Shown here one piece after another: positions 20,643 through 50,286 of a stretch of DNA of 60,897 nt. Source of the DNA: Myxococcaceae bacterium (GTDB lineage Bacteria; Myxococcota; Myxococcia; Myxococcales; Myxococcaceae); NCBI GenBank assembly GCA_044223505.1, contig JBGALX010000012.1:218174-279070 (forward strand). The letters run 5' to 3'. The notes beneath the pieces are model-generated. The model worked only from the letters and a program-made list of their open reading frames with translations. It made no database searches and had not been told where the DNA came from. Within the stretch, counting starts at the first letter, position 1, and each line of letters begins with the position of its first letter. Made by a program: the position numbers and the translations under genes.

Positions 20643-20646
20643 GGCG

Positions 20647-25972: not shown

Positions 25973-26050
25973 AGCGGAGGAAACACTCCTGTACGACGGT
26001 CCGGTTCCGGCTCTAGCGCCGTCGCTCGGGCATGTCGAGCGTGCGGGCGC

Positions 26051-26473: not shown

Positions 26474-26495
26474 CTCGAACCCAAGTATCGCTGAG

Positions 26496-26510
26496 GGCCC
26501 TCGCGTGCAA
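26496..26510 (-). promoter_or_regulatory. Candidate sigma-54 (-24/-12) promoter upstream of the PTS operon.
   Basis: The minus-strand sequence GGTGCACCTGTTGCA has GG-N10-GC spacing with a perfect TTGCA -12 element. It lies about 25 nt upstream of the IIA start. Confidence 0.35.
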
Positions 26511-26549
26511 CAGGTGCACCGCCGACCCCGGCGCGTTAAACACACATTC

Positions 26550-27194
26550 ATGGCTCTGCTCCTGCGCGCCTGGGCCGACTACGTCTGACCCTGGTGCTAC
26601 GTCGGCCAGGTCGTGGCCGAGCGATTCTCGAAGGACTACTCGTTCGACGGAAAGCCTGTGCCCGTCGACTGGCAGCCGTTCCTCTTGCGCCCCGACGCCC
26701 CCCTCGAGGGCTGGGCGCTGCCCGAGCGCATCAAGGCGATGAAGAACCGCCCCGACAACCCGCTGCACCTGCGGGCGAAGCAGCTCGGGCTGCCGCTCGT
26801 CGAGCGCGACTGGATTCCGAATTCGCGCCGCGCCCTCGCCGCCAACGAGTACGTGCGCGAGCTCGGCGGCCTCGAGAAGCTGCACGCGTACCACTCTGCC
26901 GTCAACGCGCGGTACTGGGGCCAGGGCGAAGACCTCTCGAAGCTCGACGTGCTCGAGGCCGCCGCCCGCGACGCCGGCATCGACCCGGCCGGCGTGCGCG
27001 AGGCCGTCGAGAGCGGCACGTACGACCAGCGCATCGACGACGGCATCGCGAAGGCGAACGCGATGGGCATTCACGCGGTGCCGACGTACGTCTTCTTCGA
27101 CGGCGAGCGGCCGATCGGCGCGATTCAGGGCGCGCAGGAGTACGCCGTCTTCGAGCGCGCCGCCGCCCAGCTCGGGCTCACGCCTCAGCGGTAG
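26550..27194 (+). CDS. DsbA/FrnE-like thioredoxin-fold oxidoreductase with an in-frame TGA at the first Cys position of the CxxC motif (candidate selenoprotein, U-P-W-C).
   Basis: ATG 26550 gives MALLLRAWADYV, then TGA (26586-26588), then PWCYVGQVVAERF... continuing as track ORF 26613..27194. A 7-bp stem-loop UCGGCCA-GGUCG-UGGCCGA (26602-26620) starts 13 nt after the UGA. If the TGA is a true stop, the remaining ORF lacks the catalytic motif. Confidence 0.55.
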
Positions 27195-27722: not shown

Positions 27723-28517
27723 TTACTTCGACAGCTGGCTCGAGAGCAGCTCGACGCAGCCGGTGACCGCGCGCTGCGCGTTCGACTTCGACGCGTAGGT
27801 CTCGCTGCGGGCGATGATGGCGCCGTTCGCGGCCTTCAGGTGGAAGTAGTACTGGCCGTCGGCCGCCGCGAGCACCGTGTAGCGGGCCGCGATGGCGCCG
27901 TTCGTGTTCACCGAGATGGCGCCGTTCGTCGCCGACGTCTTCGACGCGTACGACTGCGACTGCAGCACGATCTCGCCGTTCAGCGCGCGCACGTGGAAGT
28001 AGTACTTCGAGTCGAGACCCTTGAAGACCTCGAACTTCGCGTCGCCCGTGATGGCCAGGCCCTGCGCCACCGTCTGCTTCACCACCGTCGCCACCGACGT
28101 CATCGCGCGCGTCGCGTTCGACTGGCTCACGTACATCTCGCTCGCCGCCAGAATGTCGCCGTTCGCCGCCGACGCGACCACGAAGTACCAGCTGCCGTCG
28201 CTCGCCTCGCGGAGCAGGTACTTGCTCGCATCCTGGCCGTTCGCCTTCAGCGACTCGATGCCCGACAGCGCGCTCGCCTGCGTCGCGTAGCCCTGCGACT
28301 GCAGCACCTTCTCGCCGTTGCCCGCGAGCAGGTGGAAGTACGTCTTCCCGTCCTTGCCCACGAACGTCTCGAACTTGCCCTTCGCGCTCAGCGCCTCGTC
28401 GTTCACCTGGTACTCGTCGGCAGGCGACCCGACCTCGGTCGTGTCTTCGGCCCCGACGCCGCAGGCAGTGAAGGAGAGCGCGAACAGCGAAACGAGGATT
28501 TTGAAGTTGGAGTTCAT
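27723..28517 (-). CDS. Lipoprotein made of four tandem YegP/DUF1508-like repeats (264 aa).
   Basis: MNSNFKILVSLFALSFTACG has lipobox FTAC. The block KFE(T/V)F(V/K)G.DGK.YFHL.A.NGE.(V/I)L.SQ.Y recurs four times. The K/N/S/Y-rich composition is atypical for this genome. Confidence 0.75.
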   Translation of the reverse strand: MNSNFKILVSLFALSFTACGVGAEDTTEVGSPADEYQVNDEALSAKGKFETFVGKDGKTYFHLLAGNGEKVLQSQGYATQASALSGIESLKANGQDASKYLLREASDGSWYFVVASAANGDILAASEMYVSQSNATRAMTSVATVVKQTVAQGLAITGDAKFEVFKGLDSKYYFHVRALNGEIVLQSQSYASKTSATNGAISVNTNGAIAARYTVLAAADGQYYFHLKAANGAIIARSETYASKSNAQRAVTGCVELLSSQLSK

Positions 28518-28530
28518 GCCGCGGCCTTAC

Positions 28531-33480: not shown

Positions 33481-34266
33481 TCACTTCTTCTTCTTCTCGT
33501 CGAACGGCACCGTCGTGACCTGTGCCGAGCGGATCTCGATCGCGACGGTCTTCGCCTTGCCCTTCTTCGGCTCGAGCTTGAGCTGGTACTTGCCCGGCGC
33601 GAGCGGCATGTTGCGCAGCGGAGTGACGCCGAGCTCCTTGCCGTCTTTGCCGACGGTGCTCACCTTCGTGCCGGGGTCGGCGGTGATGTTGAGGAAGCCG
33701 GACTCGGGCGCCGGAGGCAGCTCTTTCAGCGTGACCTGCAGCGACTTCGCGTCGAGCAGCACGGTGACGACGCGGTCTTCCCAGCTGCACATCAGCGTGA
33801 CGGTGAGCTTCACCTTCGACTTCGGAGTCGCCGGCCCGACGAGCGCGACGAGCTCGGCGCCGTCGGTCTTCACCTCTTCGGTGCCGCCCTCTTCGACCGA
33901 GCGCACCTTGCGGTACTCGATCTTCGGCCCGTTCGCCTTCGCGCCGAGCTTCAGCTCGATGCGCTGCTTCTTCTTGTCCTTCACCGCCCTCGCCTTGCCG
34001 GTGAGCACGGTCGAGACGTCGGCCGGGCACTTGGGCTTCTCGGGCTCGGGCGCGGGCGGCGCGGCGGCGGGCTCCGGTGCCGGTGCGGGTGCCGGCGCGG
34101 TCGGCGCGGCGTTCTTCGGCTTCGGAGGCCCCGGCGGCTCGGGCGGCCCGCCGGTGTAGCCCTCGGGCGGGCGAATCGGCTTGTCGGGCTGCGGCCCGAC
34201 GGGATCGTCACACGACGCCAGCGCGAGCGCGGCTGCCGCGATGCCGAGAACCGAGAGGCGCCCCAT
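33481..34266 (-). CDS. PEGA-domain lipoprotein with a Pro-rich linker and Lys-rich C-terminus (261 aa).
   Basis: MGRLSVLGIAAAALALASCDD has lipobox LASC. A PEPPGPPKPK...APAPAPAPEP linker. PEGA-type motif GVTPLRNMPLAPGKYQLKLEP. Confidence 0.7.
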   Translation of the reverse strand: MGRLSVLGIAAAALALASCDDPVGPQPDKPIRPPEGYTGGPPEPPGPPKPKNAAPTAPAPAPAPEPAAAPPAPEPEKPKCPADVSTVLTGKARAVKDKKKQRIELKLGAKANGPKIEYRKVRSVEEGGTEEVKTDGAELVALVGPATPKSKVKLTVTLMCSWEDRVVTVLLDAKSLQVTLKELPPAPESGFLNITADPGTKVSTVGKDGKELGVTPLRNMPLAPGKYQLKLEPKKGKAKTVAIEIRSAQVTTVPFDEKKKK

Positions 34267-34972: not shown

Positions 34973-37033
34973 CTACGCCGCCTGAATCAGCCGCAGCGGC
35001 CGGAACTTCGCGTGCCGCCGCTGGCGCACCACATCGATCAGCATCCTCCCTGCCCAGCGATACACGTTGAACTCCTTCACCTGCGAGCGCATCGCGCGCA
35101 TGCGCGCCTTCTGCTCGCTCCGCTTCATCTCGATCGCCGTCCGCATCGCGTCGGCTGCCTCGTCGAGGTCGTACGGGTTCACCACCAGCGCCTCCGTCAG
35201 CTCGCGCGCCGCGCCCGTGAACGACGACAGCACCAGCACCCCCTGCTCGTCGTCACGCGCCGCGACGAACTCCTTCGCGACCAGGTTCATGCCGTCGTGC
35301 AGGCTCGACACGTAGCAGAGGTCTGCCGCCCGGTAGCACTTGAACACCGTCGGCGGCTCGTGGTGCGCGCGCAGCAGCTTCACCGGCGGCACCTTCGCTC
35401 CGGCGAAGCGCTCGTTCACGCGCGCCACCTGCGCCTCGACGCGGTCCTGCAGGTCTTTGTACTGGGGGATGACCGTTCGGCTCGGCGCCGCCAGCTGCAC
35501 GAAGCAGAACTTGCCCACGAGGCTCGGCGTGCGTTCGAGCAGGCGCTCGACGGCGAGCACGCGCTCCTCGAAGCCCTTCGTGTAGTCGAGGCGATCGACG
35601 CCGACGCCCAGCAGCGTGTCTTCGGGCAGCCCGAGCTCGGCGCGCACCTGCTTGCGGCACACGTCGACCGGAGGCGACTGCTGCACCCACCGGTTCGGCC
35701 ACTCGACGCTGATGGGGTAAGGCCGCACGAGCGTCTGCCGCCCGCGGCGCACCACCGCGTTGCTCTCGCGATCGAGCCGGGCCTCGAGGAAGCGGTCGCA
35801 CGCCTCGAGGAAGTTGTTGCAGTGCTGCTGCGTGTGGAAGCCGACGATGCTCGCGCCGAGCGTGCCCTCGAGCAGCTCGTCGCGCCACGGGCAGATGCCG
35901 AAGCGCTCGGCCGACGGCCAGGGAATGTGCCAGAACGCCACCACCGTCGCGCCCGGCAGCCGGTCGGTGATCATCTTCGGCAGCAGCGCGAAGTGGTAGT
36001 CCTGCACCAGCACCACCGGGTCCTTCACCCGCACCTCTTCGAGCAGCGCGTCGGCGAACCGCTCGTTCACCTCGCGGTACTTCTGAAAGTCCTGCGCGCG
36101 GAAGTCGGGGCGCGTGTGCACGAGGTGGCACAGCGGCCAGAGGCCCTCATTCGAGAAGCCGTAGTAGTAGCCGGCCTCTTCTTCGGGAGTCAGCCACACG
36201 CGGCGCAAGAGATAGGCGTCTTCGCCCGGAGGCACGCGCAGACGGCCTCGCGCGTCTGCGGTCTCGCGGTCGGCCGAGCCCGACGCCTGCGCGATCCACG
36301 TGCCGCCGCACGCGCGCATCACCGGCTCGAGCGCCGTGACGACGCCGCTCGCCGGGTGCAGCACCTTGATCTCGCCGTTCTGGCTCGAGCGCGTGTGAAT
36401 GTACGGCTCGCGGTTCGACACGACCGTCACGCTGCTGCCCTTGAGCTGCGCGCCGACGAGCTGCCGCAGGCGGCCCTCCGTCCACTGGCCGTCGAGGGCG
36501 AGCTCCTCGCGCTCGGCGCGCAGATCGTCGAGCAGCCTTCTCTCGGTGAGGCGCTCGATGACGAGCGTCGCGCCGGCGATCAAGAGCGCGCCCAGGCCGA
36601 ACAGCACCCACAGCCAGCGGCCGACCGCGGCACGGCGGGCCTCGATGGCGCTCGTCTCGCGCACCAGCACCAGCGTGGCGTCAGAGACGTCGACGGTGAC
36701 CGCCTCTTTCGGCAGCGCGTCGGTCGCGCAGTTGAACACCTCGGGCAGGTCGCCCGCGGCGGCGCGCAGCGTGCCGTCGTGCCCGCAGATGGCGGCCGCG
36801 AGGATGTTCTCTTTCCGCGCGAGCTCGGTGAGCGACTCCTGCAGCTCAGCGGTGCTGACGGCGTTCGCGATCGTCGGGGCGAACGCACGGCCGCGCGCCC
36901 GGAGGTCGTCTCCGTCCCACGCCCAGAGGCGCCCGGCGAGCACCTGGCTCGCGACGAACGTCAGCGCGAACGACACGAGAACGATGACGAGCGGAGCGGC
37001 CAGCGCACGTCTCAACGTGGGCGAGATCTGCAC
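34973..37033 (-). CDS. otsA: Trehalose-6-phosphate synthase (GT20, OtsA-like) with an about 200-aa N-terminal extension containing two TM helices flanking a periplasmic-like domain.
   Basis: The C-terminal 480 aa carry GT20 hallmarks (FWHIPWP, LWPLCH, VQDYHF, GVDRLDYTKG, YYRAADLCYVSSLHDGMNL). N-terminus MQISPTLRRALAAPLVIVLVSFALTFVA plus a second helix WLWVLFGLGALLIAGATLVI. Confidence 0.8.
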   Translation of the reverse strand: MQISPTLRRALAAPLVIVLVSFALTFVASQVLAGRLWAWDGDDLRARGRAFAPTIANAVSTAELQESLTELARKENILAAAICGHDGTLRAAAGDLPEVFNCATDALPKEAVTVDVSDATLVLVRETSAIEARRAAVGRWLWVLFGLGALLIAGATLVIERLTERRLLDDLRAEREELALDGQWTEGRLRQLVGAQLKGSSVTVVSNREPYIHTRSSQNGEIKVLHPASGVVTALEPVMRACGGTWIAQASGSADRETADARGRLRVPPGEDAYLLRRVWLTPEEEAGYYYGFSNEGLWPLCHLVHTRPDFRAQDFQKYREVNERFADALLEEVRVKDPVVLVQDYHFALLPKMITDRLPGATVVAFWHIPWPSAERFGICPWRDELLEGTLGASIVGFHTQQHCNNFLEACDRFLEARLDRESNAVVRRGRQTLVRPYPISVEWPNRWVQQSPPVDVCRKQVRAELGLPEDTLLGVGVDRLDYTKGFEERVLAVERLLERTPSLVGKFCFVQLAAPSRTVIPQYKDLQDRVEAQVARVNERFAGAKVPPVKLLRAHHEPPTVFKCYRAADLCYVSSLHDGMNLVAKEFVAARDDEQGVLVLSSFTGAARELTEALVVNPYDLDEAADAMRTAIEMKRSEQKARMRAMRSQVKEFNVYRWAGRMLIDVVRQRRHAKFRPLRLIQAA

Positions 37034-37131: not shown

Positions 37132-38775
37132 GTGGAGCCAAGCGTGAGCTGGGTAGCCCTCGTCGGACCCGAGATCGAAGAGAACCTGTCGCTGCGCTAC
37201 CTCGCGAGCGCGCTGAAGCGGGCGGGCTACGACTGCGAGCTCCTCGCGTACAACGGCGGCCCCGCGCTGCCGGGCATCGTGCAGCGCATCGTCTCGACCG
37301 ACTCGCCGCCGCTGCTCGTCGGCATCTCGATGGCGTTTCAGTGGCGCGCCCCCGACATGCTCGCGCTCGCCGTCGCGCTCAAAGAGGCGGGCTACCGCGG
37401 CCACGTCACCGCGGGCGGCCACTTCGCGACGTTCGCCGCGAAGGACATGCTGAACGACTTCCCCGAGCTCGACTCCATCTGCCGGCAGGAGGCCGAAGAG
37501 ACGCTCGTCGAGCTGTGCCGCACCATCGAGGCGGGCCGCGACTGGTCGGCGCTCGCCGGCCTCGCGGTGCACACGAGCGAGGGCCCGCGCATCAACGCGA
37601 TGCGCTCGGCGCCCGAGCTGTCGGGGCTCGCGTGGCCCGACCGGCGCGGGGCTCCGGCCGAGTGCTTCGGGCACCGCATCGCTCCGTTGGTGTCGACGCG
37701 AGGCTGCTACGCGAACTGCAGCTTCTGCTGCATCGCCGCGTGGCACGAGATGGCGCTGCCCGGGAAGCGGTACCGCGAGCGGCCGCTCGAAGACGTCGCC
37801 GACGAGATGGCGGCCGAGCACTTCGGGCGCGGCATCGAGATCTTCGTCTTCCACGACGACAACTTCTTCCTGCCCTCGGGCGTGAAGAACGCCGAGCGGC
37901 TGAACCGGCTCGCCGACCTGCTCGAGGCGCGCGGCGTGAAGCGCTTCGCGACCGTCGTGAAGGCGAGGCCGACCGACGTGCAGCCGAAGGCCTTCGAGAC
38001 GCTCGTGAAGCGGCTGCACTGCATTCGCTGCTACGTCGGCATCGAGACCGACGCCGACCAGGGGCTGCAGACGCTCAACCGCTGGGCCCGCTCGAAGCAC
38101 AACTGGGAGGCCATGGAGCGCATCGACGCCCTCGACCTCTACACCTGCTTCAACATGCTGCTGTTCGACCCCGACACCACGCTCGAGAGCGTCGAAGACA
38201 ACCTCGACTTCATGGAGGCGCACGCCCACTGCCCGTTCAACTTCGGGCGCACCGAGCTGTACGCGGGCACTCCGCTCTTGCACCGCATGCAGGCCGAGGG
38301 GCGCGCGCGCGGCGACTGGCTGCAGTGGGACTACAGCCTGAAGGACTCGGGCATCGAGCGCGTGTTCCAGATGGCCGCGAGCGCGTTCTACGAGCGCAAC
38401 TTCGCCGTCGATGGCCTCGCGAACACGATGATGTCGACGCGCTTCGACATCGAGGTGGTGAAGCGCTTCCACGCCGAGCAGCTGCGGCCCGAGTGGCCGG
38501 CCGCCGCGAAGGAGCTGTCGAGGAAGCTCGGTCGTGACAGCGTCGCCGGCATGCGCCGGCTGCTCGCGCACGTGCGGGCTCGCGAAGACGGCGACGCCGA
38601 GCTCGCGCAGGAGCTCGCGCTCGGGCTGCGCGAGACCGAGCAGCGGCTGAAGGGTGAGGCCCGCGCGCTCGCGCGCGAGGTGGCCGGCGTGGTCGGAGGA
38701 GCTCCGCTCACGGACGTGGGCGACAAGGTGGCGACGCCGCTGCAGCGCGCGCGCTTCGAGGAGGCACGGTCATGA
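37132..38775 (+). CDS. B12-binding domain radical SAM protein (class B rSAM), 547 aa.
   Basis: N-terminal cobalamin-binding Rossmann pattern (VALVGPEIEENLSLRYLASALKRAGYDCELL) and the radical SAM cluster motif CYANCSFC (CxxxCxxC). Confidence 0.85.
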   Translation: MEPSVSWVALVGPEIEENLSLRYLASALKRAGYDCELLAYNGGPALPGIVQRIVSTDSPPLLVGISMAFQWRAPDMLALAVALKEAGYRGHVTAGGHFATFAAKDMLNDFPELDSICRQEAEETLVELCRTIEAGRDWSALAGLAVHTSEGPRINAMRSAPELSGLAWPDRRGAPAECFGHRIAPLVSTRGCYANCSFCCIAAWHEMALPGKRYRERPLEDVADEMAAEHFGRGIEIFVFHDDNFFLPSGVKNAERLNRLADLLEARGVKRFATVVKARPTDVQPKAFETLVKRLHCIRCYVGIETDADQGLQTLNRWARSKHNWEAMERIDALDLYTCFNMLLFDPDTTLESVEDNLDFMEAHAHCPFNFGRTELYAGTPLLHRMQAEGRARGDWLQWDYSLKDSGIERVFQMAASAFYERNFAVDGLANTMMSTRFDIEVVKRFHAEQLRPEWPAAAKELSRKLGRDSVAGMRRLLAHVRAREDGDAELAQELALGLRETEQRLKGEARALAREVAGVVGGAPLTDVGDKVATPLQRARFEEARS

Positions 38776-39269
38776 GCGACAAGAAGCTGATGAACGAGCA
38801 GCTGCCGGCGCCGCAGAAGAGCGAGCCCGCCGCGAGCGCGCGCGAGCGCGTGCTCTCGCACATGAAGAGCCTCGTGAAGGTCGGGGCGGCGTCGGTGGTG
38901 GTGAGCGCGTGCACTCCGTTCGCGGTGGTCGACCCCCTGCCGCCTCCGGCGCGGTGCAAGACGAACAACGACGTGCTGAGCGAGCTGAGCGCGGTCGCGA
39001 CGCGCGCCGACGGCGGCGCGGTCATCACGCTCGCCATCAACGCGAAGATCGATGAAGAGAGCGGCGTCTTGTTGATCTCGGCACCGATCAACGACGGCGG
39101 CACGTCGATGGACGTCGTGGAGCTGAACGGCAAGCGGCTGGTCGCGAACATCACGTCGTCGGCGCCGACGGTGTTTCTCACCCTGCACCTGACCTGCGAC
39201 GGCGCCAACCGCAACGTGAGCGTGCTCATCGACACCGCGACGCTGAACGTCACGCTCAGCAAGCCGTAG
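38772..39269 (+). CDS. Hypothetical protein (165 aa; alternative start at 38862 would give a 135-aa lipoprotein), start-stop coupled (ATGA) to the B12-rSAM gene.
   Basis: Its ATG overlaps the rSAM TGA. An internal signal-anchor/lipobox-like segment MKSLVKVGAASVVVSACTPF is present. No family recognised. Confidence 0.45.
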   Translation: MSDKKLMNEQLPAPQKSEPAASARERVLSHMKSLVKVGAASVVVSACTPFAVVDPLPPPARCKTNNDVLSELSAVATRADGGAVITLAINAKIDEESGVLLISAPINDGGTSMDVVELNGKRLVANITSSAPTVFLTLHLTCDGANRNVSVLIDTATLNVTLSKP

Positions 39270-39277: not shown

Positions 39278-41800
39278 TCAGGCGCGCAGGTGGCGCGCGA
39301 TGCCGAGCGTCGTCTCGAGATCGACGGGCTTCACGAGGTGATGCTGGAACCCCGCGGCGGCGGTGCGAGCCTTGTCCGACGCCTGGCCGTAGCCGGTGAC
39401 GGCGACGAGCACCACGCGCTGGTCGAGCTCGCGCAGCCGCGCCGCGACCTCGTAGCCGTCCATCGCGGGCAGGCCGAGGTCGAGAAACGCGATCTCGGGC
39501 TTGAGCCCCTCGGCGAGGTCGATCGCGTGAGGCCCGTCGTTCGCGACCCTCACGTCGTGCCCATCGGCGCGCAGCCCCTCGGCGAGCAGCTCGGCGGCGT
39601 CGACGTTGTCGTCCACCACCAGCACGCGGCGCCGCTGATCATCGGTGCGCGGCGGCCTCGGCGCCGAAGGCCGCGGCTGCAGCTGCGCTCCGGTCGCGAG
39701 CGGCAGCTCGAGGGTGAACGTCGAGCCCTGCTTCAGCCCCGCGCTCTCGGCCTTCGCCGTGCCCTGGTGCATCTCGGCGAAGCGCTTCACCAGCGCGAGG
39801 CCGAGCCCGAGGCCGCCCGCGCTGCTGCGCTGCTCGGTGGGCGCCTGCGCGAACGCCTCGAACAGCCGCGGCAGCTGCTCGGGCGCGATGCCGTCGCCGT
39901 CGTCTTTCACCGTGAGCACCACGCGGCCGTCGTGCGCCGCCGCGCGGACCTCGACGTGCCCGCCGTCGTCGGTGTAGCGCGCCGCGTTCGTGAGCAGGTT
40001 CGACACGGCCTGCGTGAGCCGGTGCTCGTCGCCGAACAGCACGAGGCCGCGCTCGGGGACGTCGATGAGCAGCTGGTGCCGCTTCTGCTCGAACAGCGGC
40101 GACGCCATCTCGACGGCCTTCGTCACGATGCCGTGCAGCTCGACGCGTGTGCGGTTGAGCTCGATCTTCCCCCGCGCGATGCGCGACACGTCGAGCAGGT
40201 CGTCGACCATGCGCATCAGGTGCTTCACCTGGCGGTAGATGATCTTCCGCTCGCGCAGCAGCGCGGGCTCCTTCTTGCGGTCGAGCACCTCGAGCGCGAT
40301 GACGATCGGCGCGAGCGGGTTGCGCAGCTCGTGCCCCAGCATCGCCAGGAACTCGTCTTTCGTCTGGTTCGCAGCCACCGCCGCCTCCTGCGCGGCCCGC
40401 AGCTCGGCCATGTTCGACTCGGCCGCCTCGCGCAGCTTCCGCTCGGAGTCGAGCAGCAGCGCCCGCTCGAGCGCCTGCGCGCAGTGCCACGCGAGCACCG
40501 AGAGCTGCTCGAGCTCCTGGCCCGAGAGGCGCCGCGGCTCGCTGAAGCTCACGCCCAGCACACCGAGCGGCCCGTCGCGCCCGAGCATCGGCAGCGCGGC
40601 GAGCGCCGAATGGCGAACGTGCTCGGGCGAGACCGTCGGGTACCTCTGAAACAGCTGCTCCCGCGACTCGAGCACCACCGGCTGGCGCGTACGCCAGGCG
40701 TCGGCGGCCGGCGTCGCCGCGTCGGAGCGCATGCGCTGATAGTGCGCCACCGTCGGAGCCGAGTGACCCATCGAGCCACGCACGTCGAGCGACGTGCCGT
40801 CGGGGCTCGGCAGGAAGACGTTCGCGGCCGACGCGCCGACCGCCTCGGCCCCCTCGTGCACCACCGCGCGCAGCACCTCGTCGACGCCGCTCGCCCGGGC
40901 CAGCGCCGCGTTCAGCCGTGCGACCGCCTCGAGGCGCTGCTCGCTCGCGCGCCGCATCGCGTCTGCGACCGACACCGAGCGCGCGAGCATCACGGCCATC
41001 GCCGCGCTCACCACCGTGAGGCAGACGACGAGCAGCGCAGTGCCCGTGGGCGTGTCGACGACTCCGAGCGACTGGAGGCCGAGGCGCAGGTACCCGACCG
41101 CGACGGGCAGGCCGAGCACCATCGGAATCGCGCGGCGCAGCATGTAGCCGCCCGCGTCGCGCCGCGTGAACGCCTGACCGAGGCCGAGCTCGGGGCGCTG
41201 GAAGAGGGCGGCGACTCCGATGGCCGTCGCGAGCATCGCCGTGAGCCCCGCCATGCGAATGTACGAGGTCGGCTGGTAGAGCAGGGTCGCGTCGTAGAGG
41301 TAGCCGACGATGGCGCTGAAGCCGGTCAAGAAGACGCCGATCGAGAAGGCCTGGCTGAGCAGCACGGCGGTGCGACCACGGCGCGAGGCGAAGATCGACA
41401 GGCCCGCCAAGGTCAGCGCGAGCGCGGTGTTCGGCGCCATGCGGTTCGGGTGCAGCACCGCCTCGGCGAGCGCGCTGTGCTCGCGCTGCACGAGCTCGTC
41501 GATGCCGAGGTCGACGGCCGTGGCGTACTCGAGCAGCGTGAGCGCTCCGATGCCCGCAGCCAGCGCGGCGAGCACGTCGGCGAGCCGCGGCACGCGACGG
41601 CCGAGCCGCAGCACGAGCGCCGCCCCGATGAGCGTGAACGCCAGCGCCGTGTTCGCCTTCATGCGGTCGGCGACCACCTCTGCTCCGGTGCCGCCCGAGA
41701 GCCAGCAGCTCAGCACGAAGGTCCCGATGACGGCGCAGAAGACACCGATGACGGCCGCTGCCGTGCGTATGCCTTCGTTCGACTCTTCCGGGGGAGACAT
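39278..41800 (-). CDS. Membrane hybrid sensor histidine kinase / response regulator (multi-TM sensor domain - GAF - HisKA - HATPase_c - REC), 840 aa.
   Basis: About 8 predicted TM helices at the N-terminus, a GAF-like region, H-box HELRNPLAPIV, G-box DDGDGI...GGLGLGL, and a receiver with VLVVDDN...IAFLDLGLPAMDG. Internal ATG at 41800 (MSPPEESNEG). Confidence 0.8.
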   Translation of the reverse strand: MSPPEESNEGIRTAAAVIGVFCAVIGTFVLSCWLSGGTGAEVVADRMKANTALAFTLIGAALVLRLGRRVPRLADVLAALAAGIGALTLLEYATAVDLGIDELVQREHSALAEAVLHPNRMAPNTALALTLAGLSIFASRRGRTAVLLSQAFSIGVFLTGFSAIVGYLYDATLLYQPTSYIRMAGLTAMLATAIGVAALFQRPELGLGQAFTRRDAGGYMLRRAIPMVLGLPVAVGYLRLGLQSLGVVDTPTGTALLVVCLTVVSAAMAVMLARSVSVADAMRRASEQRLEAVARLNAALARASGVDEVLRAVVHEGAEAVGASAANVFLPSPDGTSLDVRGSMGHSAPTVAHYQRMRSDAATPAADAWRTRQPVVLESREQLFQRYPTVSPEHVRHSALAALPMLGRDGPLGVLGVSFSEPRRLSGQELEQLSVLAWHCAQALERALLLDSERKLREAAESNMAELRAAQEAAVAANQTKDEFLAMLGHELRNPLAPIVIALEVLDRKKEPALLRERKIIYRQVKHLMRMVDDLLDVSRIARGKIELNRTRVELHGIVTKAVEMASPLFEQKRHQLLIDVPERGLVLFGDEHRLTQAVSNLLTNAARYTDDGGHVEVRAAAHDGRVVLTVKDDGDGIAPEQLPRLFEAFAQAPTEQRSSAGGLGLGLALVKRFAEMHQGTAKAESAGLKQGSTFTLELPLATGAQLQPRPSAPRPPRTDDQRRRVLVVDDNVDAAELLAEGLRADGHDVRVANDGPHAIDLAEGLKPEIAFLDLGLPAMDGYEVAARLRELDQRVVLVAVTGYGQASDKARTAAAGFQHHLVKPVDLETTLGIARHLRA

Positions 41801-41874
41801 CGTCGGGCTTCGTCCGTACGTAGGGACGCTTGGGCTCCGCACGCAACGGGGCGCGCGGGCGTTACCGGTTGGTA

Positions 41875-42591
41875 ATGGAGGCACCCCGCGCAATGCTCGC
41901 GGCGGGAATGCGCCGGCTCGTGCTCTGCGTGCTGTGGGCGTGCGTCTCGACCGGGCCGCAGCAGGTGACGGTCGCGGCCGGGCCGTGGCGCGCCACGTAC
42001 CGCGACTGGAGCGGCGTCGACGTGTGCGAGACCGAGCCCTCGTGGCTGCGCGAGGAGCTCGACGAGGCGAACGACGTGCTCGAGCGCTTCACGGCGCACG
42101 GCGGCGCGTGGCGCGACGACGAGCTGCCCGTGCTCGAAGAGGCTTCGCGCGCGCTGCCGCCGCTGGTCGAGGCGCACGCCAAGAACCTCGAGGCGCTGCA
42201 GCACTGCCCCGGCGAGCCGCACGCGACGGCGGTCGAGCGCGGGCTCAAGCTCGTGGCCGCGGCGCGCGACGGGCTCGACGGCGCGTCGAAGCTGCTCCGC
42301 TTCTCGAGCCACCGGCGGGGCATCGAGGCGTGGCGCAAGTCACTCGAGACCGAGAGAGACGAGGCGCGCGAGCGCTGCGCCGCCGACGCGGGCGCGCTGC
42401 CTGTCATCTACTTCGCGTTCGGCGACGAGCTCGCCGGCACGACGTGGCTGTTCTGCGATGGCGCCGTCGTGAACGCGCCGCTGACCGGCGGCCTGAGGCT
42501 CGAGGGCGGCGACGCCAGCGTGCAGGCGCGGTACTTCGAGCAGTCGCGCGTGCACCCGCCGGGCCTCGTGAAGCGCCCGCCCGTCAGGTGA
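41875..42591 (+). CDS. Secreted hypothetical protein (about 238 aa).
   Basis: MEAPRAMLAAGMRRLVLCVLWACVSTGPQ is a signal peptide, and there are several conserved-looking Cys. The exact start is uncertain (ATGs at 41875, 41893 and 41908). Confidence 0.45.
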   Translation: MEAPRAMLAAGMRRLVLCVLWACVSTGPQQVTVAAGPWRATYRDWSGVDVCETEPSWLREELDEANDVLERFTAHGGAWRDDELPVLEEASRALPPLVEAHAKNLEALQHCPGEPHATAVERGLKLVAAARDGLDGASKLLRFSSHRRGIEAWRKSLETERDEARERCAADAGALPVIYFAFGDELAGTTWLFCDGAVVNAPLTGGLRLEGGDASVQARYFEQSRVHPPGLVKRPPVR

Positions 42592-43541: not shown

Positions 43542-44324
43542 TCAACGCGCCGGCGCTGCGGCGAGGTGCGCGAAGTTCTCTCGCGCGTGCAGCCAGAACA
43601 TCGCGACGGCGGCGGCCGACGTCACGTGCCAGAGCGCGTGACCCTGCCACGGCGACTCGGGCGCGCAGAGCGGCATGCCGTCGATGGCCGAGAAGTGCCA
43701 CACGACGACCCCGAGCCCGAACACGAGCACTCCGCTGCGGAACCAGCGCTTCGGCAGACGCGGGTCGCGCCGGTGCAGCCAGACCTCGCTGCCCATCACC
43801 GAGACGACGACGACCATGACGAGGTTGCCGGTGAGCGTGGGCGCCACGAGGCCGAGCCCGGCGCCGCCCACCAGGAACGCGAGCCAGAGCGGCACGAGGC
43901 CGCGCTCGCCGAGCCGGCCCATGCGGAAGAGGTTCACCCCGGCGAGCATGCCGACGACCGCGAACATGCTCGTCGCGTCGACCGCGCCGGACCAGGCCGT
44001 GAGCGAGGCGTGGAAGAACATCGAGCCCAGGCCCTGGAACACGAGCGTCAGCGCGAAGACGAGCCCGAGCGCGCGCGGCAGCCGTGCCGCTGCGGGCCGC
44101 CCGGCGTCGCGCGCGACCGCGATCGCCGCCAGCAGCGGAGCCAGGTTCGACCACGTGTTCACCGGCTGCCGCCACAAGCCCTGCGCGGGGGCCTCGCAGT
44201 AACAGAGCACGCTGGTGCAGTCGATCGGCTCGCCCGGCCAGCCGAGCAGCGCGAAGCCCGCGAGCGTGCCAAGGCCGGCGGCGATGGCCGCGAGGGTCCA
44301 CCCGAGGGTCGCACGGCCGCTCAC
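43542..44324 (-). CDS. 7-TM membrane hydrolase of the alkaline-ceramidase-like (CREST) superfamily (260 aa).
   Basis: Seven hydrophobic helices. Conserved His positions in helices (FFHASL, WLHRRD, GHALWHV with HxxxH) fit the ceramidase/PAQR-type metal site. Confidence 0.55.
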   Translation of the reverse strand: MSGRATLGWTLAAIAAGLGTLAGFALLGWPGEPIDCTSVLCYCEAPAQGLWRQPVNTWSNLAPLLAAIAVARDAGRPAAARLPRALGLVFALTLVFQGLGSMFFHASLTAWSGAVDATSMFAVVGMLAGVNLFRMGRLGERGLVPLWLAFLVGGAGLGLVAPTLTGNLVMVVVVSVMGSEVWLHRRDPRLPKRWFRSGVLVFGLGVVVWHFSAIDGMPLCAPESPWQGHALWHVTSAAAVAMFWLHARENFAHLAAAPAR

Positions 44325-44357
44325 GCAGGCCCGATGTAGCGCGGCTCGGTGAGCCGG

Positions 44358-45599
44358 TCAGCGCCCGGCGGTCTTCTTCACCAGCTCCCGCGGCGTCGGA
44401 GGCCTCGGGTCGGGCGCGTCGAACGGCTCCTCGCGGAGCTCGAAGCGGCCGTTGTCGAACGGCAGGCCCGGCGCGGCCTCGCGCAGCACGAGCCGCTCGC
44501 GCAGCCCGCGGGCCTTCAGCGCCCGGGCGCGGTGGTGGCAGTAGGGGTTGTTGCCCGGCCGCCCGAACATCGCGTGCGCGGTGAACGTGCAGCCGCCCAT
44601 GCAGGTCTCTGCGTACGCGCACGTCCGGCAGTAGCCCCAGAGGTCTTCGACGGTGCGGCGCCGCGCGAACGCGAGCTCGGGCGCGTGCTCCCAGAGGTCT
44701 TTCAAGGGGCGCTCGCGCAGGTTGCCTCCGACGTACTCGGCGGTCTGCAGCGACGGGCAGCCCTTCACGGCGCCGTCGGACTCGATGCCCAGCACCTGTC
44801 TTCCCGCGCGGCAGCCGTGGAAGTGCTCGGTGAGGCCGGGAGGCGAGCGGAGCACGGCCTCCTCGGGGCCGAAGTAGCCCAGGTTGTTGCCGGGCACGAT
44901 GAGCAGCCGCGCCTCGGCCCACGCGCGCTTCTTCAGCGCGGCGATGCGAGGCACGAGCTCGACGAGGTCCCACGGCTGCAGCAGCATCGCGGGGCGATCT
45001 GCCGCGCGCCCGAGCGGAGCCGTCAGCTGCACCTGCCACGCCGTGACGCCGAGCTCCTTCAGCACCTCGTAGAGCGGCTCGAGGTCGGCGTGGTTGAGGC
45101 GGTTCAGGTTGATGTTCGAGCCGGTCGCGATGCCGGCGGCCTTCGCGTGCCGCAGCGCCGCCGTCGCCGCGTCGAAGCCGCCGCGCGTCGCCCGCATCAG
45201 GTCGTGCGTGGCCTGCAGCCCGTCGATGCTGACCGACACGGTGTGCAGCCCGGCCTCGGCCATCGCCGCCGCGAGCTCGGGCGTGAGGCCGCGGCCGCCG
45301 GTCGTCATCGAGGGCCGAATGCCGTGGGCCTTCAGCGCGCGAATGACGTCGAGGAAGCCCGGGTGCAGGTAGGCCTCGCCGCCGATGAGCACCACCTCGA
45401 ACGTGCCCATCGCCGCGAGCTGCTCGACGACGCCGAGCGCCTGCTCGGTCGAGAGCTCGACGTCGCGGGCCTCTTGCGCGCGCGAGCCGCAGTGCGTGCA
45501 GCGCTGATCACACGCGAGCGTGAGCTCCCAGACGACGTACAGCGGCGTCGGCGGCTCGCGCACGTCGAAGCGACGCAAGAGGTCGTCGCGGCTCGCCAT
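44358..45599 (-). CDS. Radical SAM / SPASM-domain protein (AslB/PqqE-like peptide-modifying maturase family), 413 aa.
   Basis: Internal ATG at 45599 (MASRDDLLRR...). The rSAM motif is CDQRCTHC (CxxxCxxC). A C-terminal SPASM Cys cluster follows (GCRAG...GCPSL...CRTCAYAETCMGGC...YCHH). Confidence 0.85.
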   Translation of the reverse strand: MASRDDLLRRFDVREPPTPLYVVWELTLACDQRCTHCGSRAQEARDVELSTEQALGVVEQLAAMGTFEVVLIGGEAYLHPGFLDVIRALKAHGIRPSMTTGGRGLTPELAAAMAEAGLHTVSVSIDGLQATHDLMRATRGGFDAATAALRHAKAAGIATGSNINLNRLNHADLEPLYEVLKELGVTAWQVQLTAPLGRAADRPAMLLQPWDLVELVPRIAALKKRAWAEARLLIVPGNNLGYFGPEEAVLRSPPGLTEHFHGCRAGRQVLGIESDGAVKGCPSLQTAEYVGGNLRERPLKDLWEHAPELAFARRRTVEDLWGYCRTCAYAETCMGGCTFTAHAMFGRPGNNPYCHHRARALKARGLRERLVLREAAPGLPFDNGRFELREEPFDAPDPRPPTPRELVKKTAGR

Positions 45600-45604
45600 C
45601 GTGG

Positions 45605-45937
45605 CTACTCGCCGCCGTCGGTCTTGCCGCCGTCGGTGGCGCCGGCCTTGCAGCCCACGGCGTACTCGGGGTCGTTCGCCTTGATGCCGCCGTCGGGCAG
45701 CACGTGGTTGCAGACGTCGGAGCTGCACTCGTCGATGCCGCCGTCGCCGAGCGCCGCGCTCGTGCAGGGCGCTCCGTAGATGGCGACGATGCACGCCTGA
45801 AACGCGCTCGCTCCGAGCAGCCCGAGCGGAGCGAGCCACCAGCCGCGCTTCGAGCTCGGCGACGGTGAGAACGCGCAGTTCGGGCAGCGGTGGTCGGGGT
45901 TGGGGACGAAGCTTCGGCACTCGGGGCAGCGCAGCAT
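45605..45937 (-). CDS. Small membrane-anchored protein (110 aa): N-terminal zinc-ribbon (CPEC...CPNC), one TM helix, and a Cys/Gly/Asp-rich C-terminal tail. Candidate substrate/precursor of the adjacent rSAM/SPASM enzyme.
   Basis: Internal ATG at 45937 (MLRCPECRSFVPNPDHRCPNC...). TM is WWLAPLGLLGASAFQACIVAIYGA. The tail PCTSAALGDGGIDECSSDVCNHVLPDGGIKANDPEYAVGCKAGATDGGKTDGGE has 5 Cys and DGG repeats. The gene ends 5 nt before the rSAM start. Confidence 0.55.
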   Translation of the reverse strand: MLRCPECRSFVPNPDHRCPNCAFSPSPSSKRGWWLAPLGLLGASAFQACIVAIYGAPCTSAALGDGGIDECSSDVCNHVLPDGGIKANDPEYAVGCKAGATDGGKTDGGE

Positions 45938-46197
45938 CAGTTTTTCCTCGGGGTGGCTCGGCCGGCCCGGGCTCTGTGCAAGGGCTGATCCGGCGCGGAA
46001 CTCACGCGGAATCGCCGCGGTGCATGCATGCTCCACTGCCCCTGAGGGTGGAGCGCGACGCGCAAGTCGCCGTGAGCTCGCGGTCGGCCGCGCTCGAAGG
46101 CGCGCTGACACGTCAGGCAGGGGTCGAGCTTCGCGCTGTCGGCGCCGCTACTCGTGTGGGCGATCGAGCTGTCGCGCGCGCTCACGCAGCCGTCACA

Positions 46198-46983: not shown

Positions 46984-48260
46984 GACCAGACTCCCGGCAG
47001 CACGCGCGTCGAGTCGCCGAACCGGTCGACCCCGGCGCCCATCGCCCCCATGAACGCGAGGTAGAGGTTCGCGAGCGGCTCGGCCTGCGCGAGCCGCACG
47101 TGCTGGCCTGCGACGCTGCCGCCGCGGCCGGCGACGAGCACCGGCAGGTTCGTGTGCGCGTGCGAGTTGCCGTCTTCGACGTCGCTCGAGAAGTACGCGA
47201 CGGTGTGGTCGAGCAGCGTGCCGTTGCCCTCGGGCACGGCCTTCAGCGCCTCGAGGAGGTAGCCGAACTGGGCGACCTCCCACGTGGCGATGACGTCGAG
47301 CTTCTCGAGCTTCTCGGGGTCGTTCTGGTGGTGCGACAGCTCGTGGTGGGCGCCGCGAGCTCCGAGGAAGTCGTAGCTGCGGTTCGAGATGCCGTTCGCG
47401 AGCATGAAGCTCACCACGCGCGTGAGGTCGCAGCGCAGCGCCGTCACGATGAGGTCGATCATCTGCTTCGACTTCACGGGAATGTCGCCCTCGACTGGAG
47501 CCGTTGCGCTGCACGTGCCCGCCTCGACGCCGAGCCGCACCTCGAGCTCGCGCACGCCCGTCAGGTACTCGTCGAGCTTCGCGCGGTCTCTCGTCGACAG
47601 CCGCGACGACAGCGAGGTCGCCTCGCCGCGCACGTAGTCGAGCACGCTCGCGCGCGTGACGCGGCGGCGCTGCAGCTGCTGCTGGCTCGCCGACGCGTCT
47701 GCTCCGGCGAAGAGGCGCTCGAAGACGACGCGCGGCTCGACGAGCTTCGGCATCGGGCTCTTCGGGCCGGCCCACGAGATGTTCCGCGTGTACGCGCACG
47801 AGTAGCCGTTGTCGCAGCTGCCCTGCGACTCGCCGCCCTCGAGGCCGAGCTGCAGCGAGCGGAAGCGCGTCGCCGGGTTCAGCCGCTGCACCATCAGCTG
47901 ATCCACCGAGGTGCCGTTGGTGATGTCGGCCGCCTCGGACTTCACGACCGCCTCGCACGTGAGAAACGAGCCCGTGCCGCGCGCGTGATCGCCCGGCAGC
48001 GGGGAAGCGGCCGGCGCGTTCGACAGGCCCGTGATGACCGTCACGTGCGGCTTCACCGGAGCGAGCGGCAGCAAGAGTCGCTTGGGCTGCCACTGAGGGC
48101 CCTCGGCGTCGGGCGTCCACCCGCTCATGTTGATGCCGTTCGGCGCGAAGACCGCGACGAAGCGCATCGGCGGCGCGGTCTGCGCCAGCGACTCGAACGC
48201 CGGCAGCGCGACGAGGGCGCCGGCGCCTCCGAGAAAGGCCCTGCGGCCGAGGCGAATCAC
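46980..48260 (-). CDS. DUF1552-family protein with a Tat-type signal (426 aa).
   Basis: VIRLGRRAFLGGAGALVALPAFESLAQ (twin-arginine RRAFL). The body matches the DUF1552 pattern (...FMLANGISNRSYDFLG...HHELSHH...). GTG at 48258-48260 overlaps the TGA of the upstream DUF1592 gene. Confidence 0.78.
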   Translation of the reverse strand: MIRLGRRAFLGGAGALVALPAFESLAQTAPPMRFVAVFAPNGINMSGWTPDAEGPQWQPKRLLLPLAPVKPHVTVITGLSNAPAASPLPGDHARGTGSFLTCEAVVKSEAADITNGTSVDQLMVQRLNPATRFRSLQLGLEGGESQGSCDNGYSCAYTRNISWAGPKSPMPKLVEPRVVFERLFAGADASASQQQLQRRRVTRASVLDYVRGEATSLSSRLSTRDRAKLDEYLTGVRELEVRLGVEAGTCSATAPVEGDIPVKSKQMIDLIVTALRCDLTRVVSFMLANGISNRSYDFLGARGAHHELSHHQNDPEKLEKLDVIATWEVAQFGYLLEALKAVPEGNGTLLDHTVAYFSSDVEDGNSHAHTNLPVLVAGRGGSVAGQHVRLAQAEPLANLYLAFMGAMGAGVDRFGDSTRVLPGVWS

Positions 48261-50155
48261 GGGGCGGCTCCTCTCGCGCGGAAGACCGGCGCGTGCACGA
48301 GGGCGTCGACGAGGCCCGGCAGCGTGTGCGCTTCGGCGAGCGACTCGAGCACCGACTGCTCTTCGCCGCCCGGCGGCCGGCCCAGCGCGTAGGTGAAGAG
48401 GTGCTGCGCGATGCACAGCTCGAGGTTCGGGTCGCTCGCGACGAGCTGCGAGAGCTGCGCCGGCCCGTCGAACGAGCGCCCGTCGGGCAGCTTGCCGGTC
48501 GCGTCGATGGCGTAGCCGAGGTCGCGCTCGCGCGCCGCGCCGATGCCGTCGAAGCCCTCGAGCCCGAAGCCGATGGGGTCCATCTGCTTGTGGCACGACG
48601 CGCAGACCGGCTTGCTCACGTGCGCCTCGAGCCGCTGCCGCACGCTGCCCATCACCTGGGTCGCCGTCGGCAGCCCCTCGACGCCCGGAGGAGGAGGCGG
48701 CGGCGACTGACACAGCAGCTGGCTCAGCACCCACTTGCCGCGCTGCACCGGCGACGTGCGCGTCGGGTAGGAGGTGAACGTGAGGAAGGCGCCCTGCGTG
48801 AGCAGCCCGCGCCGCTGAGAGCCCTCGTCGAGCGTCACGCGCTGAAAGTCGTCGCCGGGCGCAGGCAGCCCGTAGTGCGCGGCGAGCGGAGCGTTCACGA
48901 ACGTGAAGTCGGCGGTGAGCAGCTCGCGCGTGGGGCGCTCGCCCGCGACGAACGCGGCGAAGAAGCGCTGCGACTGCTCGCGCATCGCGTCGCGTAAGCC
49001 TGGGCTCCACGCGGGGAACGCGTCGGGGTCGGTCTCGTGGGCCGCGAGCGCGCGCGTCGCGAGCCACTGGCCGCCGAAGTCTTCGATGAACGCCTGCGCC
49101 TTCGGGCTCTCGAGCATGCGCTTGACCTCGGCCGACAGCACCGCGGCGTCGTGCAGCCGCCCCTCGTCGGCGCGAGCCCGCAGCGGCTCGTCGGGCATGC
49201 TCGACCACAAGAGATACGAGAGCCGCGTCGCGAGCTCGTGGTCGGTCAGCCAGCGCGGGCGGCCCTCGCCGTCGGCCTCGACGCGGAAGAGGAAGTGTGG
49301 AGAGACGAGCGCGGCCTCGAGCGCCACAGCGACCGCCGCGTCGAACGGAGCGCCCGCCTCGAGCTCGGGCTCGACGAGCGCCAGCAGCGCGTCGACCTCG
49401 GCGCGCGACACCGGGCGGCGAAACGCCCGCGCCGCGAAGCCCTCGACGATGTGCCGCGCGTCCGCCGAAGCGAAGACCTGTGCGTACGCCTCGGACGGCG
49501 CCTCGAGCGGGCCCTCGAGCCGCAGCCAGTCGACGCGCGCGGCCTTCAGCGGCCCGGCCATCGGCGCGCCCGTCAGCTCGAGCGTGAGCGCGGCGGCGCC
49601 TGCTTGCGGGGCGTCGACCTCGACCGAGTAGACCTTGGGGAAGGTGTCGGCGAGCTCGAGCGTCTCGGTCGCAGCGCCGAGCGAGAGGCGCGCGGGCAGC
49701 GGCCCGCTCTCGGCGGCGGCGCGCACCGAGAGCCGGTAGCGCCCGGCGGCGGGCAGGCTCAGCTCGGCGCGGAGCTGGCCGCTCCACAGGCGCCACCAGG
49801 TGTCGCGCCAGCGGTGGCCCTCTTGCGGCTGCAGGTCTTCGGCCTGGAAGACGGCGAAGGTGCGGCTGCCGACGAGCTCGTCGACGAGCGTCTCGGCGGC
49901 CTGCGCGTAGAGCTCGGCCTGCAGCGGCGAGAGGCTGAGCGCGTCGGGGTTGTTGTCGAAGCCGTACGCGTGGTCGTCGACGGGAAAGTCGCGTGACGGG
50001 TCGAGCGTGGTGCCGAGCAGGTCTTGCACGGTGCGGCGGTACTCGGTGCGATTGAGCCGGCGCAGCGTGATGAGGCCCGGGTCGTAGGGCACGGCCGGCT
50101 CGGCGCAGGCGCTGATCAACGCCACCACAGAAAGGGCTGACCAGGCCGCTCGCAC
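48257..50155 (-). CDS. DUF1592/DUF1595/DUF1587/DUF1588/DUF1585-family lipoprotein (partner of DUF1552), about 632 aa, containing a CxxCH motif.
   Basis: Start placed at GTG 50155 (VRAAWSALSVVALISACAEP, lipobox ISAC), downstream of an intrinsic terminator. Contains the CASCHKQMDPIGFGLEGFDGIG motif characteristic of this family. Confidence 0.75.
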   Translation of the reverse strand: MRAAWSALSVVALISACAEPAVPYDPGLITLRRLNRTEYRRTVQDLLGTTLDPSRDFPVDDHAYGFDNNPDALSLSPLQAELYAQAAETLVDELVGSRTFAVFQAEDLQPQEGHRWRDTWWRLWSGQLRAELSLPAAGRYRLSVRAAAESGPLPARLSLGAATETLELADTFPKVYSVEVDAPQAGAAALTLELTGAPMAGPLKAARVDWLRLEGPLEAPSEAYAQVFASADARHIVEGFAARAFRRPVSRAEVDALLALVEPELEAGAPFDAAVAVALEAALVSPHFLFRVEADGEGRPRWLTDHELATRLSYLLWSSMPDEPLRARADEGRLHDAAVLSAEVKRMLESPKAQAFIEDFGGQWLATRALAAHETDPDAFPAWSPGLRDAMREQSQRFFAAFVAGERPTRELLTADFTFVNAPLAAHYGLPAPGDDFQRVTLDEGSQRRGLLTQGAFLTFTSYPTRTSPVQRGKWVLSQLLCQSPPPPPPGVEGLPTATQVMGSVRQRLEAHVSKPVCASCHKQMDPIGFGLEGFDGIGAARERDLGYAIDATGKLPDGRSFDGPAQLSQLVASDPNLELCIAQHLFTYALGRPPGGEEQSVLESLAEAHTLPGLVDALVHAPVFRARGAAP

Positions 50156-50234
50156 GGCGCGAGCAGTACCACAGGGTGACGAGCACCGTTCGCGCCGGGT
50201 TGGCGTGAATTGTCTGCCGTCAGTCGCCGCCCGC

Positions 50235-50286
50235 AAAAAGAAAAACCCCGGGTGTGCCGCTCCAAAGGGGCGGCCCGGCCCGGGGG
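50235..50286 (-). terminator. Rho-independent terminator on the minus strand: two-level GC hairpin followed by TTTTTCTTTTT.
   Basis: The minus strand reads CCCCGGG-[GCCGC..GCGGC inner stem]-CCCGGGG TTTTTCTTTTT. On the plus strand this appears as aaaaagaaaaa followed by the stem. Confidence 0.6.

Follow-up and report, generated by a model that had tools for sequence, protein, structure and literature searches.

A conserved two-gene module in Myxococcota pairing a cobalamin-type radical SAM enzyme with a small, tag-bearing putative lipoprotein, its candidate substrate

The locus analyzed here is a pair of genes in a 60,897-nucleotide stretch of DNA from a Myxococcaceae bacterium (contig JBGALX010000012.1 of assembly GCA_044223505.1). 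This whole stretch is hereafter called the window and has a GC content of about 71% throughout. The first gene (37144..38775, + strand) encodes a 543-aa class-B radical S-adenosylmethionine (SAM) enzyme (rSAM), i.e., one with a B12-binding domain, as judged from Pfam matches and an AlphaFold2 (AF2) model. The second gene (38772..39269, +) encodes a 165-aa, apparently exported protein, which is a putative lipoprotein precursor and a candidate substrate of the rSAM. An alternative GTG start at 37132 yields a 547-aa rSAM open reading frame (ORF; 37132..38775, +); the GTG at 37144 is the more likely start, because GGAG stands in front of it, the resulting 543-aa product is that of a database entry (P0014) and the N-termini of homologues fit it. 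As proposed in the original prediction, the two genes are joined by an ATGA start/stop overlap (38772..38775, +) of the kind associated with translational coupling, in which the rSAM stop codon TGA occupies 38773..38775. A Shine-Dalgarno sequence for the small gene, GAGGAGG (38758..38764, +), graded as strong, lies within the rSAM coding sequence 8 nt upstream of the ATG. The flanks are likewise those first described, with a GT20/OtsA-like gene carrying an N-terminal extension of two transmembrane (TM) segments on one side (34973..37033, −) and a GAF hybrid histidine kinase gene with about six TM segments on the other (39278..41893, −). Since both flanking genes lie on the opposite strand, the rSAM and the small gene make up a two-gene unit of their own. 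An Rfam scan of the window returned neither a cobalamin riboswitch nor any other match, and a consensus scan found no sigma-70-like promoter and a single terminator-like site, which lies within the small gene and does not rise above the level of shuffled sequence.

The small ORF is a real coding gene, because its GC content at third codon positions (GC3) of 0.89 is coding-like, being similar to that of the neighboring genes, and because it has hundreds of homologues. A word-based search with the small protein retrieved 13 homologues with 30–61% identity, and a profile search against 1.84 billion representatives clustered at 50% identity gave 422 matches at E<=1e-3, including 103 at E<=1e-10. 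Two giant proteins returned by the profile search (P0258 and P0278) were rejected as family members, being unrelated proteins with immunoglobulin (Ig) repeats and without the tag described below. The homologues are annotated in their sources as 'hypothetical protein', and scanning the small protein together with 47 relatives against Pfam and NCBIfam assigned no family, returning two stray matches, each to a single member.

Searching genomes with 16 aligned rSAM homologues yielded 80 related loci from soil bacteria. Most of them are from Myxococcota, among them cultured Labilithrix luteola DSM 27648 (L034) and Hyalangium versicolor (L003), while a few are metagenome-assembled genomes (MAGs) of Phycisphaerae (Planctomycetota) or Acidobacteriota. 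Across these loci, a hidden Markov model (HMM) of the small protein matched 106 ORFs, all on the rSAM strand, and a regular expression for its core tag matched 100 times on the rSAM strand and never on the opposite strand. With the loci missed by the first HMM inspected individually, a same-strand homologue of the small gene stands beside the rSAM gene in all evaluable loci except one (L029, considered below), which, together with the coding signal, bears out the downstream ORF as a genuine and conserved neighbor. The identical 4-nt overlap ([AGT]TGA) recurs in 39 loci; where it is absent, the small gene starts about −50 to +32 nt from the rSAM stop, mostly within ~20 nt, with a distance of 65–170 nt downstream in a few loci. 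In about ten loci, including those missed by the first HMM, the small gene or genes lie upstream of the rSAM gene. Independent metagenome contigs (L001 and L082) also carry the rSAM gene followed by the small gene, and a metagenome scan with an alignment of the small protein (A1) gave two confirmed loci, of which the readable one is L082. All-versus-all clustering of the flanking genes in the 80 loci revealed no third conserved gene and, in particular, no conserved gene for a protease, a transporter, a lipid-pathway enzyme or a recognition-element protein near the rSAM gene; only Ser/Thr kinases recur, in 16 loci and on either strand. The rSAM and the small gene are, therefore, a conserved two-gene module. 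One apparent fusion, a 796-aa rSAM ORF running into the small-protein region (L065, 5959..8349), was rejected and looks like a frameshifted MAG assembly, because the out-of-frame small gene is intact.

The rSAM combines a B12-binding Rossmann-type domain (37174..37515, +; aa 15–128 of the 547-aa frame; PF02310, E 4.3e-16, covering profile positions 11–120 of 121) with a radical SAM core (37690..38211, +; aa 187–360; PF04055, E 3.6e-11). The translation contains the stretch RGCYANCSFCC, in which CYANCSFC (37705..37728, +) is the CxxxCxxC motif of the [4Fe-4S]/SAM cluster, with cysteines that are invariant in the 16 homologues; the class-B assignment made earlier is borne out by both Pfam domains. 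According to the AF2 model and the 16-homologue alignment, the C-terminal region (38332..38775, +) is made up of a domain of long helices and, behind it, a disordered but conserved tail, PLTxxGDxVATPLQxAR; the region as a whole is a candidate for substrate docking. The model as a whole (predicted local distance difference test score, pLDDT, 84; predicted template modeling score, pTM, 0.86) consists of the Rossmann domain, the barrel and three long C-terminal helices at residues 425–442, 450–478 and 484–517 in the 543-aa numbering. Outside the CxxxCxxCC stretch, the only invariant cysteine among the homologues is C293, with C335 conserved in at least 90%, and this alignment thus gives no hint of conserved cysteines for an auxiliary cluster.

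A Foldseek search of the PDB with the rSAM model placed OxsB first (E 1e-18, TM-score 0.6), followed by TsrM, MgmA, TokK, CysS and AprD4, with OxsB, TsrM, TokK, CysS and MgmA aligning at E 1e-18 to 1e-12. MgmA is the methyl-coenzyme M reductase (MCR) glutamine C-methylase, while AprD4 possesses a B12-like domain, yet is not known to use cobalamin. A profile search of PDB sequences also gave OxsB first (9e-19), then CysS and TokK. The rSAM matches 23 NCBIfam families at E<=1, but the class-B models among them all score far under their cut-offs: HpnR with 69 bits versus 650, BchE with 64 versus 481, HpnJ with 54 versus 578 and ApyD with 49 versus 750. The cut-offs for KedN5, PhpK, the TsrM-type enzymes and the MCR glutamine methylase are likewise not reached. 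The enzyme is, therefore, of class B by architecture, with cobalamin use predicted, and belongs to an unnamed family whose chemistry is not readable from sequence. Its clade is large and tight, with 1,172 homologous proteins at E<1e-10. The best 120 of these are mostly 540–560 aa long and 56–79% identical, three shorter partial entries excepted; named sources among the best homologues are Hyalangium, Archangium, Myxococcaceae and Polyangia, and the source annotation is the generic 'B12-binding domain-containing radical SAM protein'.

The small protein is built from a conserved N-terminal part and a variable remainder; in alignment A1 the first 62 residues share a mean identity of 63%, compared to 34% for the rest. 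It begins with the motif LMNEQLPAP (aa 6–14; 38787..38813, +), which corresponds to [KR]xLxLMPEVLPxP in the family, with [ED]xLPxP as its core. This is followed by the leader helix RERVLSHMKSL (aa 24–34; 38841..38873, +; AF2 helix 23–37), in the family RxR[TV]xxH[LM]xxL, of which the amphipathic RxR[TV]xxH[LM] helix is the most widely kept N-terminal element. Next come a hydrophobic h-region and a lipobox, LVKVGAASVV-VSAC (aa 34–47; 38871..38912, +), with V44-S45-A46-C47 as a canonical lipobox, its Cys47 being scored as invariant. A relaxed lipobox pattern fits 96 of 114 family members, and the uncharged, A/T/G-rich run before the Cys has a median length of 13 residues in the family. One subgroup (L012, L018, L023 and L068) has an AxA-type signal peptidase I site instead of the lipobox.

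After a linker that varies from 0 to ~60 aa across the family, the lipobox Cys is followed by the core tag, PFAVVDPLPPPARC (aa 49–62; 38916..38957, +), for which the family pattern is G[YF][GA]VV-D-P-[LM]-P-x-P-A-x-C. Over 157 sites, the successive positions are occupied by G (59%), [YF] (78%), [GA] (64%), V (89%), V (81%) or C (13%), D (100%), P (96%), L (54%) or M (31%), P (100%), P (68%), P (100%), A (56%), any residue and C (75%), so that the positions of D54, P57 and P59 in window numbering are constant over these sites, whereas the Val just before the Asp can be replaced by Cys. For the residues of the window protein, D54 and P59 are given as invariant and P55, P57 and C62 as at least 90% conserved. 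In the most divergent phyla the tag is reduced to C-D-P-x-P-x-P and the N-terminal motif is lost, while the RxR helix is kept. The E-Q-L-P-A-P of the N-terminal motif (38787..38813) and the D-P-L-P-P-P of the tag (38931..38948) have the same skeleton, a likeness that could reflect a second site, a docking pseudo-substrate or coincidence.

The remainder of the window protein is a variable passenger modeled as an Ig-like beta-sandwich (aa 63–165; 38958..39266, +; AF2 pLDDT 80–94), for which a fold search gave only generic Ig-like matches (best E 0.04) that are uninformative on function. Other members carry different passengers, either a PEGA-like domain (in the L012, L018, L023 and L068 subgroup) or a CarboxypepD_reg-like domain placed ahead of a C-terminal tag. 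The window itself contains two PEGA-domain proteins (8549..9871, +; 33481..34266, −), neither of which shows the tag. Two proteins (L027 and L062) have no passenger at all and end 12–20 residues past the tag, being composed of leader, signal, linker and tag alone. Conversely, some proteins (L053, L022, L035, P0201, P0249 and P0266) contain two tags, with low-complexity linkers joining them in L022, L035, P0201, P0249 and P0266. Furthermore, about 20 loci (e.g., L038, L039, L006, L033 and L040) have 2–7 tandem paralogues of the small gene per single rSAM gene. The arrays of paralogous lipoprotein genes behind one rSAM in L038 (7650..11600) and L039 (7660..11100) hold seven and six tags, respectively, and their later copies lack the EVLPxP motif and keep the RxRT..HM helix.

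Several of these features bear on the location of the small protein, which is very probably exported. Its N-terminus has the appearance of an unusually long signal peptide, with a conserved n-region of 33–45 aa that includes the amphipathic helix, an A/T/G-rich h-region of 10–14 residues and a lipobox Cys; at 33 aa, the n-region of the window protein is longer than is typical. The elements of a lipoprotein precursor, namely an n-region, an h-region of 7–22 residues and a lipobox of the type [LVI][ASTVI][GAS]C, are all present in the sequence, and lipidation and cleavage are predicted. The original prediction had spoken of a signal-anchor or lipobox-like segment. The lipobox part of this description holds with V-S-A-C47, but a cleavable lipoprotein-type signal peptide is favored over an anchor, because the median 13-residue run is too short for a membrane anchor. 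In addition, 136 of 147 members possess both the Cys that follows the tag and another one late in the sequence, and in the window protein Cys142 probably pairs with Cys62; this conserved Cys pair suggests a disulfide and hence an extracytoplasmic location. A Tat signal peptide was rejected, as the conserved arginines are arranged as R-x-R (R24-E-R26 in the window) rather than as consecutive RR, family-wide.

The relationship between the two gene products that fits these observations best is that of an enzyme and its substrate. On balance, the small protein is probably a (lipo)protein that is exported after modification by the rSAM. The rSAM is placed in the cytoplasm because it requires SAM, a reductant and Fe-S assembly, and since its partner appears to be exported with a probable disulfide, contact between the two must precede translocation. 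In the proposed mechanism, the cytoplasmic rSAM would bind the conserved n-region of the small protein as a leader and would modify the invariant linear tag, [YF][GA]VV-D-P-[LM]-P-x-P, after which the modified protein would be exported via Sec/Lgt/LspA. The leader would be removed together with the signal peptide, making a dedicated protease or transporter unnecessary, which would explain why no protease or exporter is linked to the pair.

The combination of a constant leader, an invariant short core and a variable remainder argues for a maturase and its precursor. The hallmarks of pairs that make peptides synthesized on the ribosome and modified after translation (RiPPs) are found here as conserved adjacency, a conserved leader and motif, and paralogues, although the window itself is single-copy. 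The original prediction had left the small protein as 'partner or substrate'. The conserved pairing supports an association of this kind, and the diversified tandem paralogues, the duplicated tags, the minimal proteins consisting of leader plus tag and the swapped passengers favor a substrate over a subunit. Once modified, the tag might act as a rigid tether that resists proteases, or as an epitope by which envelope proteins are recognized.

As for the chemistry, C-methylation of an unactivated carbon in a tag residue (Pro, Asp or Val) is tentatively suggested by analogy. As far as we know, every class-B rSAM with demonstrated activity on a peptide or protein (PoyB/C, the bottromycin methyltransferases, TbtI, Mmp10 and MgmA) is a C-methyltransferase, and for this reason C-methylation is taken as the default. 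Within the substrate model it is roughly twice as likely as other chemistry. A non-methyl reaction, i.e., a rearrangement, ring contraction, cross-link or oxidation at the Asp-Pro or Pro of the tag, is nevertheless kept in view, because OxsB, BchE and HpnJ are the nearest relatives and the invariant tag residues are Asp and Pro. The nearest solved relative in both sequence and fold, OxsB, is a ring-contracting enzyme, BchE and HpnJ score high among the NCBIfam models, and the tag offers an Asp and three prolines as well as a Val at −1 that may be Cys. These points are countered by the uniform C-methyltransferase activity of the peptide- and protein-acting enzymes named above, by the presence of MgmA, TsrM, TokK and CysS among the close structural neighbors, and by the lack of conserved auxiliary-cluster cysteines. 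Modification of the small protein by non-methyl chemistry seems unlikely.

Somewhat less likely still is that the small protein is not a substrate but a stoichiometric partner, a bitopic tether whose cytoplasmic N-terminus (EVLPxP plus helix) recruits the rSAM to the membrane, where the enzyme would act on a lipid or hydrophobic molecule in the manner of HpnR/HpnP, HpnJ and the class-B enzymes of the tetraether or ladderane type. The ATGA coupling implies roughly equimolar synthesis, the best NCBIfam scores belong to the hopanoid enzymes HpnR and HpnJ, plus BchE, the hydrophobic 19-mer of the window protein lies above the transmembrane threshold, and conservation is highest in the N-terminal segment, which faces the cytoplasm. 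However, a 1:1 tether is difficult to reconcile with up to seven paralogues per rSAM, and the h-region is short, at a median of 13 uncharged residues, with a lipobox or signal peptidase I site at its end. The DP[LM]PxP tag would lie across the membrane, beyond reach of the enzyme, leaving its conservation unexplained. Moreover, the scores for lipid enzymes are all about one tenth of the cut-offs, and no lipid-pathway gene is conserved nearby. Finally, it is very improbable that the small proteins are envelope lipoproteins that aid the enzyme indirectly, e.g., by capturing cobalamin, another cofactor or a metal, with the real rSAM substrate encoded elsewhere: B12-binding surface lipoproteins do exist in other phyla (e.g., BtuG/BtuH), this class of rSAM needs B12 and the small proteins are apparently exported, but conservation falls on a linear Pro-rich tag and a signal-peptide n-region rather than on a fold, the folded domain being variable, swapped or absent, transporter genes are not among the conserved neighbors, a cobalamin riboswitch is missing from the window, and the conserved cytoplasmic leader would be left without a reason.

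The reading of the small protein as an rSAM substrate also has points against it. Beyond the gene association, the whole model is inferred. The window holds a single copy of the small gene, and a 1:1 partner would account for the translational coupling just as well. The hydrophobic stretch of the window protein continues into PFAVV, with a 19-mer hydropathy of 1.75, and for this member alone a membrane anchor is still conceivable. With respect to the enzyme, the closest solved relative, OxsB, performs ring contraction and not methylation, and the top NCBIfam scores (HpnR, BchE and HpnJ) are those of lipid or tetrapyrrole enzymes. Furthermore, the rSAM gene of L029, from a Byssovorax sp. MAG (5872..8567), has no tag protein within 6 kb. 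In this locus a ROK-family-like gene overlaps the rSAM stop in place of the small gene.

Comparison with characterized systems places the pair in a known general kind, that of an rSAM maturase with an adjacent precursor. Like PoyB/PoyC, BotRMT1-3, Mmp10 and MgmA, the enzyme consists of a B12-binding domain at the N-terminus, an rSAM barrel with CxxxCxxC and a domain of helices at the C-terminus, and the proposed target is a ribosomal polypeptide that is encoded nearby or defined by a short context. In contrast to these enzymes, it has no family-level sequence membership, its proposed substrate is an exported (lipo)protein bearing a signal peptide, and the flank clustering shows no companion gene for a RiPP protease, transporter or recognition element. 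OxsB from oxetanocin biosynthesis is the best match in sequence and fold, yet at only 16–18% identity. It differs in having a nucleotide substrate, in acting together with OxsA, for which there is no counterpart gene here, and in its extra N-terminal domain and length of 744 aa.

Modification of an exported protein by a cytoplasmic rSAM before translocation is known from anSME and its sulfatases and from QhpD/QhpC. In the case of anSME, a short linear motif (sulfatase C/S-x-P-x-R) is modified in an unfolded protein with an export signal, as is proposed here. However, anSME and QhpD are SPASM/twitch rSAMs without a B12 domain, the substrate genes of anSME are scattered in the genome instead of being translationally coupled, and the residue modified in the anSME systems is catalytic. 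An rSAM and a neighboring putative lipoprotein have also been paired bioinformatically in the 'rSAM/lipoprotein system' of TIGR04133/TIGR04134, but TIGR04133 is a SPASM-type rSAM. This family is absent from the 23 NCBIfam matches of the B12 rSAM, and neither the small protein nor its 47 relatives match TIGR04134 or any other NCBIfam family model, so the pair falls outside this system.

A documented parallel on the substrate side is found in the bufferin and oxazolin precursors of the multinuclear non-heme iron-dependent oxidase (MNIO) enzymes, which have Sec signal peptides instead of classical leaders (PMC12452194). About 16% of the Buf2 precursors are predicted lipoproteins, and some precursors are protein-sized (PMC12452194). 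Modification of bufferins is cytoplasmic and precedes export, and recognition is suspected to rely in part on the signal peptide (PMC12452194). The differences lie in the enzyme, an MNIO/DUF692 protein with a DUF2063 partner there and a single class-B rSAM here, in the targets, which are Cys residues there and the DP[LM]PxP tag here, and in the gene order, as the precursor gene comes first there and usually follows the enzyme here.

The window contains several further features of note. A second, unrelated radical SAM gene with a SPASM domain (44358..46001, −) lies directly upstream of a gene for a ceramidase-like membrane protein on the same strand (43542..44357, −). The best NCBIfam matches of this radical SAM are peptide maturases, nif11-class maturase 3 (441 bits versus a cut-off of 725) and the GDL-motif-peptide maturase (413 versus 592), with TIGR04133 also among its matches, well under the cut-off; this may be another peptide-maturation locus. 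A mannose/sorbose-type phosphotransferase system set (EIIA-man, IIB-sorb and IIC) with enzyme I (PtsI) occupies 18885..26578 (−) in an otherwise myxobacterial-looking genome. The gene at 27723..28526 (−) encodes a 267-aa protein with four DUF1508 repeats (Pfam E 1e-47) and has an unusually low first-position GC content (0.57) and a GC3 of 0.97. Lastly, a full planctomycete-type PSD/PSCyt domain set (DUF1587, 1595, 1592, 1588 and 1585) is found at 48257..50356 (−).

Full-text literature searches found nothing on the rSAM/small-protein pair or on the tag motif, and the combination of this enzyme clade with the tag, the signal-peptide leader and lipoprotein substrates is new. Few large enzyme groups are as poorly understood as the class-B rSAMs, and the abundant clade described here is annotated only generically. 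It is possible, though we put it forward tentatively, that the pair represents an unrecognized phylum-wide system in which one cobalamin-type rSAM, reading an extended n-region as leader, equips envelope proteins, while still in the cytoplasm, with an unprecedented, perhaps non-methyl, modification at a portable D-P-[LM]-P-x-P tag. If the small proteins are indeed substrates, the pair would constitute a new protein tag together with its writer, in a system of just two genes that lends itself to direct testing. The signal peptide would then serve both recognition and export, and the use of Sec/lipoprotein signal peptides as maturase leaders would extend from MNIO to radical SAM enzymes. An rSAM counterpart of the bufferin logic would then be on record for the first time, as would a class-B rSAM that matures lipoproteins, and a hidden chemical trait of the cell envelope in myxobacteria would come to light.

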